From: Chloroflexota bacterium
Lineage (GTDB): Bacteria; Chloroflexota; Dehalococcoidia; SM23-28-2; RBG-16-64-32
Reading direction: 5' to 3'
DNA: 63,352 bases
Assembly (NCBI GenBank): GCA_036741795.1
Contig: DAINRO010000001.1
Span: 1-63,352, forward strand
Below, piece after piece: positions 41,775 to 46,151 of the stretch. Position 1 is the first letter of the stretch, and every line of letters starts with the position of its first letter. The notes beneath the pieces were generated by a model. The model was not told where the DNA came from. It ran no database searches and saw only the letters and a program-made list of their open reading frames with translations. The translations under genes and the position numbers were made by a program.

Positions 41775-43138
41775 TGCGGCCGCCAGCGGGTGCCTTCGGC
41801 CACGTCCTCGAGGGTGATGCCAAGTTCGGCCAACCTGTCACGCACCTGGTCGGCGAGGGCGAACTGCTTTGCCGCCCGGAGATCGTTCCGAAGGTTTACG
41901 AGCAGTTCGATGAACGGCTCCGCGCCCTTGATGGACTTCGGTTGCGTGAGTGTGAGGCCGAGGATTCCGGCCAGCTTTCGCATCACTCCCTGTGCTTCCG
42001 CGGTGTCACGGCCTGCGTCGCGGGCCCGGTTGATGTCACGGGCGAGGTCGAAGAGGACGGCCAAGGCCGCGGACGTATTCAGGTCGTCGTCCATCACCTC
42101 GGTGAATCGCCTCTGGTACTCCTCCGACGCGATGTCTGCAGGGGGACCCTCTCCGCCTGGAACTTCCGCCGCGAGGAGGAGCCGTTCGGCGGCGCGGCGC
42201 GCAGACTCGAGTCCTTCCTCGGAGTAATTGAGCGGCGCCCGATAGTGCGCAGTGAGGACGAAGATGCGGAGGGCGTCTGCGCCGTACGTGTCCAGTGCCT
42301 CCCTGATCGTGATGATGTTGCCGAGGGACTTGCTCATTTTTTCTTCGTCGAGCGTGAGCCAACCGTTGTGCACCCAGTGACGCACTGAGGGCTTCACACC
42401 GGTAAAACCTTCGCTCTGGGCAATCTCGTTTTCGTGGTGAGGGAAGATGAGGTCCTGGCCGCCGCCGTGGATATCCAGTTGGTCGCCGAGATACCGGTAG
42501 GACATCGCGGAGCACTCGATGTGCCAGCCAGGGCGCCCTGGCCCCCAGGGACTGTCCCAGGATGGTTCGTCGGGCTTCGCCGATTTCCAGAGCGCGAAGT
42601 CGAGTGGGTCCCGCTTGATCTCGCCGGGTTCGATCCGGGTGCCCACCATGAGGGAATCCACGTTCCGGCCGGACAGCTTGCCGTAGTCGGGGTTACGGCG
42701 GACGTTGTAGTAAACGTCCCCCTCCTCGGTGCTGTAGGCGCGGTCCTTCTCGATGAGCTTCTCGACCATCTCGATGATCTGCGGGATTTCCTGGGTGGCA
42801 CGAGGATAGATGTGCGGAGGAGTGATGTTCAGGTCACTCATCTCCTCCTCGTACTCCGCGATGAAAGCTTCGGCAACCTGGTCGTAGGTCTGGCCCAGGG
42901 CGTTGGCCTTGGTAATGATGCGGTCGTCGATGTCGGTGTAATTCTGGACGTGCTTGACCTTGTAACCGCGGAATTCGAGGTAGCGGCGGAGCACGTCGAA
43001 GATGATGTAGGACATGGCGTGGCCGATGTGGGAGTGGTCGTAGGGCGTGATGCCGCAGACGTAGATCTTGATCTCGTCGTCGCGGAGGGGGATCTCCTCC
43101 ACGCGGCGCGACATCGTGTTATACAGCCTTAACGTCAT
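41771..43138 (-). CDS. cysS: cysteine--tRNA ligase
   Basis: Track ORF 41771-43486 trimmed to ATG at 43138: [18 protein letters not shown]...[19 protein letters not shown] (HIGH) and KMSKSLGN (KMSKS). The upstream 116 codons are Ser/Arg-rich and overlap cysE. Confidence 0.92.
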
Positions 43139-43808
43139 TTTCCCGAGTCTTGTTCGTCCCCTTGCGCTTCGGCTTCTCACCCTCGACCTGTTCCAGCCGC
43201 GCCTCCAGCTCCTCGATGCGGGCTTCGAGCCGCTGAATGATGTCCCACTCCGGGTCCGGGAGCTTGAGGACGGTGTCGTCGCCGGGGTCAGCGAAGGCGA
43301 CGACGTGGCCCGGCACGCCGACGACGGTGGCGTTCGGTGGGACGTTGGTGACGACGACGGAACCCGCACCGATCTTGGCGTTTTCGCCGACGGTGACATC
43401 GCCGATGACCTTCGCACCCGCGCCGACGACAACGTTGTCCTCGAGAGTCGGGTGCCGCTTGGCCCGCCGGGTGCTGGTGCCTCCAAGCGTCACACCCTGG
43501 AAGAGGTGGACGTTGTCGCCAATGATCGCCGTTTCGCCGACGACGACGCCCATGCCGTGGTCGATAAAGAACTTCTCGCCGATCTCAGCGCCTGGGTGGA
43601 TTTCAATACCAGTGATGAAACGGCTGATGTGGGCGATGAAACGGGCCGGTAGCTCCAGCCCCTGGTGATGCAATGCGTGCGACACCCTGTGGATTTGCCG
43701 GGCGTGAAAGCCCGGATACGTGAGGATGACTTCTAGTTCGTTAATCGCCGCCGGGTCACGTTCCCTCGCGGCCTGTATGTCCCGTTTTATGCTGTCTAAG
43801 AGTCCCAC
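43119..43808 (-). CDS. cysE: serine O-acetyltransferase
   Basis: 229 aa, GTG start. Contains [14 protein letters not shown] and the hexapeptide repeats [41 protein letters not shown]. Confidence 0.92.
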
Positions 43809-43990: not shown

Positions 43991-44479
43991 CTACGGTGAA
44001 TCTGTGACCAGCGCAACCGCCATGGCGGCTATCCCCTCACCGCGTCCGACAGGCCCTAACCCTTCGTTGCTCGTAGCCTTGACGCTCACCTGCGCCTCCG
44101 GGATGCCGAGCGCTCCGCCGATCGCCCCTTTCATATCGGTGATCCGCCCGGTAAGCCGGGGGGTCTCGGCGATGACGGTGGCATCGACATTGCCGACGGT
44201 CGCTCCTGCATCCTTGAGCATCGACGCCGTTGCGCGCAGGAGGTCGAGACTGCTGGCGCCGTCCCAGCGCTCATCGTTGTCCGGGAAGTGGGTGCCGATG
44301 TCGCCCAGTCCGGCAGCGCCGAGCAGCGCGTCGATGATGGCGTGAATTAGTACGTCTGCGTCTGAATGGCCGGCGAGGCCGCTCTCCCCGGGGAAGGAGA
44401 CACCGCCGAGGACGAGATGGCGTCCGGCCTCCACCCCGTGGATGTCGTAGCCGATGCCGACGCGCGTGCCCTGACTCAC
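43991..44479 (-). CDS. ispF: 2-C-methyl-D-erythritol 2,4-cyclodiphosphate synthase
   Basis: 162 aa. Contains GIGYDIHGV and GHSDADVLIHAIIDALLGAAGLGDIGTHFP. Confidence 0.95.
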   Translation of the reverse strand: MSQGTRVGIGYDIHGVEAGRHLVLGGVSFPGESGLAGHSDADVLIHAIIDALLGAAGLGDIGTHFPDNDERWDGASSLDLLRATASMLKDAGATVGNVDATVIAETPRLTGRITDMKGAIGGALGIPEAQVSVKATSNEGLGPVGRGEGIAAMAVALVTDSP

Positions 44480-45192
44480 TGGAGGTAGGACTCCGCGAGC
44501 CAGAGGTCGTCGGGTGTGGTGATCTTGATGTTGCGGCGGCGACCCTCGTAGGTCATGACGGCAACACCGAGCAGCTCCACCATGGCGGAATCGTCGGTGA
44601 CGTCATGCGTGATTTCGGTGTGCGCGCGCATGAGCAGATCGTAACGGAATACCTGTGGAGTCTGCGCCGCCACCAACCGGCTACGGTCGAGTGTTCCGGA
44701 TACAACCCCGTCAGGCGCTACGTTTTTGATGGTGTCAACCAGAGGAATCACAGGCACCGAGGCGCCCGTCTCACGAGCCGCGTTCAGCCCGCGCGCGATC
44801 ATCCCCGGCCTGATCAAAGGACGGCCGCCGTCGTGAACGGCGACCCAATCAACGCGACCAAGAGATTCGAGGCCACAGCTCACGGAGTCCTGCCTGCGTT
44901 CTCCACCTGAGCAGACATCGATGACCTTCTGGAATCCCTCCTGATTCACCAGTTCACGGCCACGTTCCAGGTTCGATTCGTTCATGACCAGGGCAATGCG
45001 GCTGATTTCCCGGCAATCCTCGAAGGCAGCAACAGCGTGGCCGAGCAGGGTGCGACCGCCCACGCGGGTGAAGAGCTTGTCCTGGCCCTCCATGCGGACG
45101 CCGCTCCCGGCGGCGACGATGACGGCGCCAAAGACTTCGGTGTTGTCGTCAGTAGACCCGCTCACGGGACCATCAGATTGAGGATGACGCAC
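44476..45192 (-). CDS. ispD: 2-C-methyl-D-erythritol 4-phosphate cytidylyltransferase
   Basis: 238 aa. Contains AVIVAAGSGVRM and VAVHDGGRPL. The 4-nt overlap with ispF is clear; the exact start is uncertain. Confidence 0.9.
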   Translation of the reverse strand: MRHPQSDGPVSGSTDDNTEVFGAVIVAAGSGVRMEGQDKLFTRVGGRTLLGHAVAAFEDCREISRIALVMNESNLERGRELVNQEGFQKVIDVCSGGERRQDSVSCGLESLGRVDWVAVHDGGRPLIRPGMIARGLNAARETGASVPVIPLVDTIKNVAPDGVVSGTLDRSRLVAAQTPQVFRYDLLMRAHTEITHDVTDDSAMVELLGVAVMTYEGRRRNIKITTPDDLWLAESYLQ

Positions 45193-45196
45193 TGAG

Positions 45197-45838
45197 TCAA
45201 GCGGCGCTCGTGACTATGGAAACGACGATTGCGGCGAGTCCGGCGAGCCACCAGTTCTTTATGATCTTGCCCGGCAAGACCGCGAAGAAAAAGGTGCGCA
45301 TGGGCATCTGCACGGCGCCAGCCGCGAGGCCGGCGACGTCGAAGAACGGGTTGGGGATGCAGGAGAGGAAAAAGAGTGTGAGGGCGCCTTTCTTCTCCAT
45401 CCATGCCTTGATGCGCAGGTAGCTCGGCTTGTCTTCCACCATGATTCGGCCGCCGTAGCCAGCGGCGTACCCGCTGAACTCGCCGATGGCCTCTCCGAGG
45501 CCCGCGACGATACCCACCCAGAACCAGGCCGGTATGCCGAGAAACGGCTCCAGGAAGGCCGCCCCGCCGATGACGCTGGCGGCTGCGGGCGACGGGAGGA
45601 GGATAGACGCAGCCCCGATGATGTTGATCAGGAAAATGCCAAAGTAGCCGTAGCTCTTGAGGTTGCTGATGTCGGTGCTGAAATAGAAGAAGGCGATCGC
45701 GAAGAGCGTCAGCATCAGGGCGACGCCGATAAGGAGGGTGTACTCGAAGCGCCAATGGAAACGCCGGATGTTCTCCTGCGTTTCTACGGCTGTGACTTCG
45801 ACCTGTTCTTCCTGTATCACGTACCCCGCTTGCGTCAC
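45197..45838 (-). CDS. DedA/VTT-domain (YqaA-like) membrane protein
   Basis: The track start (CTG at 45841) is replaced by the adjacent GTG at 45838, which has AGAGG 8 nt upstream. Contains GAASILLPSPAAAS, GLGEAIGEFSGYAAGYGG and IPNPFFDVAGLAAG, resembling the SNARE-associated/DedA fold. Confidence 0.7.
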   Translation of the reverse strand: MTQAGYVIQEEQVEVTAVETQENIRRFHWRFEYTLLIGVALMLTLFAIAFFYFSTDISNLKSYGYFGIFLINIIGAASILLPSPAAASVIGGAAFLEPFLGIPAWFWVGIVAGLGEAIGEFSGYAAGYGGRIMVEDKPSYLRIKAWMEKKGALTLFFLSCIPNPFFDVAGLAAGAVQMPMRTFFFAVLPGKIIKNWWLAGLAAIVVSIVTSAA

Positions 45839-45853
45839 CAAGTCTGCCTCTTT

Positions 45854-45888
45854 CAGACAACGAAAGGGCGAGAGGCCAATCTCTCGCC
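45854..45888 (-). terminator. intrinsic terminator (expression platform of the c-di-AMP riboswitch)
   Basis: Minus strand GGGCGAGAG-attggc-CTCTCGCCC followed by TTTCGTTGTCT, about 15 nt before the RBS of the DedA-like gene. The 3' aptamer strand GGGAGAGGC can alternatively pair with GCCTCTC of the terminator. Confidence 0.7.
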
Positions 45889-45911
45889 CCCGGTCAGGGT
45901 CGTCGCCAACA

Positions 45912-46046
45912 GCCTCTCCCTCTTCTCGCCTACGGGGTTAGCTGACGGGTTCGGCATGAAGGAGTCTGCCTATCCCTCCGAGGAAGGAATTCACCCCAGG
46001 TTCGGTTCCCTCGTTCCCTTCGCGTTGCGGCGAAGAGATTCGGCGC
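45912..46046 (-). promoter_or_regulatory. c-di-AMP riboswitch (ydaO/yuaA class)
   Basis: Minus strand GCGCCGAATCTC...ACGAGGGAACCGAACCTGGGGTGAATTCC...GGAGGGATAGG...GCCGAACCCGTCAGCTAACCCCGTAGGCGAGAAGAGGGAGAGG. This matches, block for block, the conserved elements I recall from structurally characterised ydaO riboswitches (GCCGAAUCC / ACGGAGGAACC / GGGGUUAAUC / AGGGAUA / CCCGACAGCUAACUCCGGAGGC / AAGGAAGGAG). Confidence 0.8.
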
Positions 46047-46151
46047 TTTGAACTACTTATGTTTGGACACGTCCAGCCGGGAAGCCGGGGTGCCCTTCGT
46101 CTAGTTGAACGCGCCGGTCAGGCGAAAGTTACGGAGACAAGGGTGTGTCGA

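Follow-up and report, generated by a model that had tools for sequence, protein, structure and literature searches.

What does a cyclic di-AMP (c-di-AMP) riboswitch control when the genes behind it encode a membrane protein and two enzymes of isoprenoid precursor synthesis? The question is raised by a locus in a 63,352-nt stretch of DNA (hereafter, the window) from an uncultured Chloroflexota (Dehalococcoidia) assembly (2.4 Mb, 139 contigs, 89.6% complete). The minus strand of this locus carries, in order, gdh, the riboswitch aptamer, a terminator hairpin, a ribosome-binding site (RBS), a gene for a membrane protein with the VTT domain of the DedA superfamily, ispD, ispF, cysE and cysS. A sequence-only reading of the window proposed that c-di-AMP gates the supply of lipid carriers for envelope synthesis at this site. 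The explanation that we favor, and consider fairly probable as a whole, is that a riboswitch-VTT unit has been joined to the ispDF genes by a lineage-specific fusion.

The riboswitch and its expression platform

The aptamer (45911..46055, minus strand) matched the RF00379 model (ydaO/yuaA class) over its full length (1–134 of 134) in cmscan, with 92.7 bits against a gathering score of 38 (E = 1.6e-20). About 20 nt after it, an expression platform can be read from the sequence as an intrinsic terminator hairpin (about 45855..45890, minus strand) with a perfect, GC-rich 9-bp stem (GGGCGAGAG/CTCTCGCCC) and a T-rich tail (TTTCGTTGT), ending ~15 nt before the RBS and start codon of the VTT gene. 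The hairpin is present in the minimum-energy structure calculated with RNAfold (about 11 pairs), and a GGGGCGAGAGG...CCTCTCGCCCC terminator hairpin follows the aptamer in 14 of the 14 related loci examined. Both the model score and the conserved hairpin confirm that a c-di-AMP riboswitch with a terminator stands ahead of the membrane protein gene, as the sequence-only reading had it. The VTT gene itself (45197..45841, minus strand; 214 amino acids) starts at TTG 45841 or GTG 45838, 4–7 nt after the RBS (AAAGAGG). The genome also encodes a DAC-domain cyclase. We infer that the riboswitch is an OFF switch, in which binding of c-di-AMP would favor termination.

The combination of an RF00379 aptamer with a terminator-type platform is shared with the leaders of Bacillus subtilis kimA (ydaO), Bacillus thuringiensis kdpFABC and Corynebacterium glutamicum nlpC. 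Unlike these leaders, the window's riboswitch has a VTT gene downstream, belongs to an uncultured Dehalococcoidia host and heads a transcript that probably runs into ispD-ispF.

A consensus scan found no promoter for the riboswitch in the window. The relatives' riboswitch promoter has the form CGTTGACA-17-TA(G/C)NNT; the window has a degenerate −35 element (TTCAAC where relatives have TTGACA), so that transcription of the riboswitch may depend on read-through from gdh (47417-46152, minus strand), located upstream of the aptamer. In many genera, a CGTAACCTTT motif is conserved ~15–25 nt upstream of the riboswitch −35 element (window 46080-46150, minus strand; L052–L081).

Conservation of the riboswitch-VTT pairing

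We surveyed 65 genomes of the order (26 genera in 6 families), along with 17 related loci from public Chloroflexota metagenome-assembled genomes (MAGs). Of the 65 genomes, 64 carry RF00379, in one to eight copies each. Orthologs of the VTT protein, with identities of 53% or more, were identified in 47 genomes, the window's own included, and the aptamer lies directly upstream of the ortholog in 42 of them, which represent four families of the order. At this frequency the arrangement is far beyond chance. Similarly, RF00379 stands directly upstream of the VTT ortholog in 14 of the 17 MAG loci. No aptamer was detected at 49 loci with more distant VTT homologs from other families or classes. This absence, together with how common the pairing is within the order, indicates from the genome sequences that it arose in, and characterizes, this Dehalococcoidia order.

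All five genomes whose VTT ortholog has no aptamer belong to one genus (G412–G415 and G417; loci L053, L055–L057 and L077), and in all of them gdh directly adjoins the VTT gene. The riboswitch is still present in G416, a sixth genome of the genus. VTT-ispD-ispF is retained in four of the five aptamer-less genomes, and the fifth (G415) keeps VTT with no ispD within 3 kb. The possibility of a sub-threshold riboswitch (in L006, L008 and L009) was considered and rejected, as cmscan at E ≤ 1 returned nothing and nhmmer returned nothing in all five genomes of the genus.

Full-text literature searches returned no paper linking c-di-AMP riboswitches with DedA, SNARE-associated, TVP38 or isoprenoid genes; the ydaO gene lists of the primary papers were outside the coverage of these searches. 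By this measure the riboswitch's target is an unreported, order-wide gene family, and the statement of the sequence-only reading that the link had not been described holds.

The VTT-ispD-ispF junctions in the window

The gene after VTT, ispD, codes for 2-C-methyl-D-erythritol 4-phosphate cytidylyltransferase (PF01128, 202 bits; TIGR00453, 210.8 bits against a cut-off of 181.3) and spans 44476..45192 on the minus strand as the longest open reading frame (ORF), with GTG 45165 as an alternative start. It is single-copy, being the sole above-cut-off match in the assembly. It is followed by ispF (43991..44479, minus strand), which codes for 2-C-methyl-D-erythritol 2,4-cyclodiphosphate synthase (PF02542, 211.6 bits; TIGR00151, 188.8 bits against a cut-off of 116.45) and overlaps ispD by 4 nt, as originally read. 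The 4-nt gap reported between the VTT stop codon and ispD is correct for the longest ORF and becomes 31 nt if GTG 45165 is used. The latter start aligns with the one assigned to ispD in L165 and L167, the closest relatives (VTT 86% identical). The junction in close metagenomic relatives is a 31-nt gap (L165) or an 11-nt overlap (P0008 contig).

Whichever ispD start is used, the gap in the window holds no terminator-like site and no recognizable promoter-like site, and we saw no Shine-Dalgarno sequence before either candidate start. The missing Shine-Dalgarno sequence fits translational coupling. The sole candidate for an internal promoter from a σ70-type scan was a weak 9/12 match (TCAACA-16-TATCCT, −10 element ending at 45600) within the first half of the VTT gene, which was rejected as a chance match. 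VTT, ispD and ispF share a strand, are separated by 4 (or 31) and −4 nt, and have no detected terminator or promoter between them. This spacing makes co-transcription of the three genes in the window's genome rather likely.

Arrangement of the ispDF genes in relatives

The adjacency VTT-(yacL)-ispD-ispF was identified in 44 of the 47 ortholog-carrying genomes. ispD directly follows VTT in 19 of these genomes, all from the window's family. Another 25, from all four ortholog-carrying families, have a YacL-like gene between VTT and ispD, which codes for a 364-amino acid membrane protein with PIN and TRAM domains (PF01850 and PF01938). Something else follows VTT in the remaining three. The same adjacency, without a riboswitch and at 36–46% protein identity, occurs in 6 of 27 sampled genomes from other families of the class. 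The yacL-containing order appears to be the older state because it is also found outside this Dehalococcoidia order.

The loci with yacL have a near-consensus promoter (P2; TTGAC[AG]-17/18-TATA[AC]T) that starts 10–15 nt after the VTT stop codon, replaced in one family by an extended −10 element (TGCTATACT). In a scan of both strands of 335 kb, the strict motif TTGAC[AG]-N17-18-TATA[AC]T occurred 17 times, each time within 120 nt after VTT. TATA[AC]T is present in the post-VTT spacer of 25 of 25 yacL-type loci. Furthermore, the spacer of 13 of the 18 other yacL-less loci contains TATAGT, TATAAT, TACAAT, TAGAAT, TACTAT or TAAGAT, usually 7–10 nt upstream of the ispD start codon. In total, 38 of the 44 genomes with VTT-(yacL)-ispD have a promoter or −10 box in the spacer. 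No terminator was found between VTT and P2 in the relatives, so transcripts that pass the riboswitch can supplement those from P2.

These spacers do not support a conserved riboswitch-VTT-ispD-ispF operon, as 38 of 44 contain a promoter or −10 box and 25 genomes have yacL inserted. The typical organization predicted from them is P1-riboswitch-VTT, followed by P2-(yacL)-ispD-ispF-cysE, with ispDF as neighbors of the riboswitch unit rather than conserved members of it. The gene order that the sequence-only reading expected to be conserved is indeed conserved, both for riboswitch-VTT (42 of 47 genomes) and for VTT-(yacL)-ispD (44 of 47). The co-transcription that it proposed is plausible in the window, with its tight junctions, but is not a conserved trait. 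The independent ispD promoter that it held would speak against the proposal is present in most relatives.

Three side observations concern the sequences upstream of ispD and yacL. Many relatives have an apparently leaderless ispD, with a −10-type box (TATAGT, TATAAT, TACTAT or TAGAAT) 7–10 nt upstream and no Shine-Dalgarno sequence (L053, L055, L056 and L077; L060, L063, L064, L068 and L073). In one genus (L084–L094), the leader of the yacL-ispDF genes (~120 nt from the TATACT box to the yacL start) can form three hairpins enclosed within a long-range stem, with modest covariation (double changes in 3 of 38 pairs) and no Rfam match. Lastly, the VTT-ispD spacer of two genomes (L054 = L007 and L066 = L013) is filled by 4–5 tandem GTTTG-containing repeats (CCGTTTGCAT / GGTTTGCTTGTTTGGCCGTTTGG), an array that could bind a protein.

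Probable fusion of two transcription units in the window's lineage

Only three of the 47 genomes leave no room for a promoter between VTT and ispD: the window's, with 4 (or 31) nt, G432, in which start and stop codons overlap in TTGA, and G448, with 3 nt. We did not find yacL anywhere in the window's assembly (89.6% complete). The lack of promoter room, the missing yacL, the single ispD and the missing Shine-Dalgarno sequence together make it likely that ispDF are on the riboswitch-gated transcript. Comparison of the spacers suggests that the VTT-ispDF junction of the window is a derived state, produced when two transcription units were fused, rather than a conserved regulatory design.

Farther along the strand, cysE (43119..43808, minus strand; TIGR01172, 234.8 bits) and the next gene, cysS, form with ispDF an older housekeeping cluster, (yacL)-ispD-ispF-cysE-cysS, whose gene order is the same in relatives. 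The corresponding neighborhood of B. subtilis is yacL-ispD-ispF-gltX-cysE-cysS. Like it, 25 genomes have a YacL-like PIN/TRAM gene directly upstream of ispD-ispF-cysE-cysS. Unlike it, the window's lineage has no yacL at this position, and a riboswitch-controlled VTT gene abuts the cluster.

The mechanism that would account for these arrangements starts from a standard c-di-AMP riboswitch with an intrinsic terminator, whose conserved target would be a divergent membrane protein of the VTT/DedA superfamily. The ispD-ispF genes would belong to the older housekeeping cluster directly downstream of VTT. In most relatives, P2 would provide them with constitutive transcription, to which riboswitch read-through may add. 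The window's lineage would have lost yacL and the promoter spacer, leaving 31 nt or less between VTT and the only ispD copy, and most transcription of its ispDF genes would come through the riboswitch, with termination that is probably leaky. Any control of isoprenoid or lipid-carrier supply by c-di-AMP would then amount to no more than a lineage-specific by-product of operon fusion.

A divergent VTT-domain protein

The VTT protein matched the Pfam VTT domain (PF09335) at residues 90–199 with 44.1 bits, above the cut-off of 33.9. The first gene after the riboswitch is thus of the DedA/VTT type, as first proposed, and not from an unrelated transporter family. No NCBIfam model matched the protein at E ≤ 0.01, including the UptA models NF052604 and NF052605. 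Its homologs (n = 506) carry Joint Genome Institute (JGI) names that alternate among DedA, YdjX/TVP38 and YqaA. Against the E. coli family members, a profile of 30 orthologs scored 11.4 bits with YdjZ, 11.3 with YqaA, 3.7 with YqjA, 3.3 with DedA and 2.9 with YdjX. These scores are consistent with a divergent subfamily that is marginally closer to the YqaA/TVP38 type than to canonical DedA.

Like UptA of B. subtilis and S. aureus and PA4029 of P. aeruginosa, the window's protein is small and polytopic, has the VTT domain (PF09335) and has two predicted re-entrant helix-Pro-helix elements. It differs in that it does not match the UptA NCBIfam models. It also lacks the canonical DedA motifs present in the C13 paralog of the same genome (FPGE, GDN..Y and RFLPxxR) and carries LLPSP, GEAIGEFSGYAAGYGGR and IPNPFFDVAGLAAG instead. 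The AlphaFold2 model (predicted local distance difference test score, pLDDT, of 71.8) has a helix-LLPSP-helix element at residues 66–96 and a helix-IPNP-helix element at 139–176, and these two predicted helix-Pro-loop-helix elements are what the superfamily would lead one to expect. A Foldseek search of the PDB returned noise (best E = 0.37, TM-score < 0.25) and a sequence-profile search of the PDB gave no match, in both cases against a target set apparently lacking a solved DedA-type relative.

The window's genome encodes two other VTT-domain proteins, for a total of three. One (contig C13:13234-13599) has the canonical DedA motifs FPGE, GDN..Y and RFLPxxR, scored 32 bits with E. coli DedA and has UptA (NF052604) as its best NCBIfam match, with 42.7 bits, below the cut-off of 250. 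The other (contig C15:25352-25903) is a sister of the window's protein, to which it is 38% identical. The canonical DedA on C13 would be a better candidate than the window's VTT protein for a role with undecaprenyl phosphate (C55-P).

Other targets of the riboswitch class

The known associations of the ydaO class are with potassium transporters, amino acid transporters, cell wall remodeling and osmotic shock (PMC7266159, PMC6488665, PMC9960051). The window's genome has three other RF00379 copies. One is upstream of a polytopic membrane glycosyltransferase of family 2 (GT2; PF13632; >455 amino acids; L004:1772-3136, plus strand, contig C9), a pairing that we also identified in three other genomes. 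Another precedes a Zn-ribbon ORF (L003:1652-1987, plus strand), behind which lies a tandem universal stress protein, and the last precedes a Zn-ribbon ORF of 68 amino acids (L002:1249-1455, minus strand).

Across the order, we sampled 60 riboswitch matches not associated with VTT for the first gene downstream. The commonest was a radical-SAM aminomutase of the KamA family (~515 amino acids; 19 of 60, namely L134, L114 and 17 more loci), whose nearest relatives are lysine, arginine or glutamate 2,3-aminomutases. Its best NCBIfam matches were TIGR00238 and lysine 2,3-aminomutase, all below the cut-off. This enzyme may make a beta-amino-acid compatible solute. Small Zn-ribbon proteins of 60–120 amino acids with a CPxC...C..CGY motif recurred at least 14 times, GT2 enzymes three times, and a CPA2 antiporter with TrkA domains (K+/H+-type) and a YtxH-like protein once each.

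By analogy, the order's riboswitch targets resemble an osmotic and envelope stress set. The resemblance extends to the ydaO class of Firmicutes and Actinobacteria, with its osmotic and envelope targets, and includes the K+/H+-type antiporter and the probable synthesis of an osmolyte. This osmotic and envelope theme suggests that the VTT protein is another membrane stress factor that would act at low c-di-AMP. Its function may lie in the homeostasis of membrane lipids or ions during osmotic stress.

Alternative explanations

Several points weigh against a fused, riboswitch-gated transcript. Co-transcription in the window's genome is deduced from gene spacing alone. The promoter scan that saw nothing before ispD also misses the riboswitch's own promoter in the window, so its silence is weak evidence that ispD has no internal promoter. 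With the only copy of an essential gene of the 2-C-methyl-D-erythritol 4-phosphate (MEP) pathway behind an OFF switch, the cell would run a risk unless some transcripts escape termination. In addition, the −10-only matches in the yacL-less relatives are short motifs. In an alternative that we regard as possible, if doubtful, the riboswitch would control VTT only, and ispD-ispF would be transcribed in the window with little read-through from an unrecognized promoter in the 3′ end of VTT or in the 31-nt spacer. Such a promoter would be in keeping with the independent promoters of ispD or yacL in most relatives, with an essential, single-copy ispD and with promoters that can be cryptic in this genome. 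Furthermore, a TCTGAT motif located 4–6 nt before GTG 45165 is kept in the window, L165 and L167 amid an otherwise divergent spacer. However, there is no TANNNT-type −10 element at a suitable distance from either candidate ispD start, and with no terminator after VTT, transcripts that pass the riboswitch must enter ispD. The start-stop overlaps or 3–4-nt gaps in two other genomes (L052 and L059) and the 11-nt overlap on the P0008 contig also suggest translational coupling.

The circuit put forward by the sequence-only reading, in which the VTT protein is a C55-P flippase and forms with ispD-ispF a dedicated module through which c-di-AMP adjusts the supply of lipid carriers to envelope synthesis, is in our estimate improbable. 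Flipping of C55-P has been documented for DedA-family proteins, namely UptA and PA4029 (PMC11474028, PMC12893004), and the window's genome has mraY and uppS as well as the GT2 glycosyltransferase behind another riboswitch. The persistence of VTT-(yacL)-ispD-ispF in 44 of 47 genomes of the order, and in 6 of 27 outside it without the riboswitch, may also reflect a functional link. Yet the bridge from DedA to undecaprenyl phosphate fails on the protein itself, given the lack of any UptA or other NCBIfam match, the 3–11 bits scored against the E. coli family (3.3–3.7 with DedA and YqjA) and the separate canonical DedA on C13, for which UptA is the best, if sub-threshold, match. Substrates also vary in the superfamily; PetA, for example, handles phosphatidylethanolamine (PMC10193950). 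Further points against the module are that ispDF have their own promoter in most relatives, that the VTT-ispDF synteny persists without the riboswitch (in four genomes of one genus and six outside the order), and that what else this riboswitch class precedes in the order suggests osmotic stress rather than lipid carriers. We consider it similarly unlikely that the VTT protein transports or scrambles an isoprenoid-derived lipid (polyprenyl phosphate or similar), with a function tied to the neighboring MEP genes. If it did, the persistence of VTT-(yacL)-ispD-ispF across Dehalococcoidia with and without the riboswitch would be explained, and c-di-AMP would couple osmotic status to lipid-carrier handling in this order. 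The conserved gene order as such hints at a functional or co-expression link between the VTT subfamily and the yacL/ispDF cluster.

Implications for c-di-AMP signaling in Dehalococcoidia

The window's locus falls short of establishing that c-di-AMP and the supply of lipid carriers are generally linked. In a phylum that has received little study, it extends the c-di-AMP riboswitch regulon by a protein of the VTT/DedA superfamily. This also provides a functional handle on the VTT subfamily, which, under the OFF logic deduced for the riboswitch, would be expressed at low c-di-AMP alongside osmotic-stress genes. The locus may further serve as an example of how two transcription units can be fused by the loss of a spacer, which in a few lineages would have placed an essential pair of isoprenoid genes behind a second-messenger switch.

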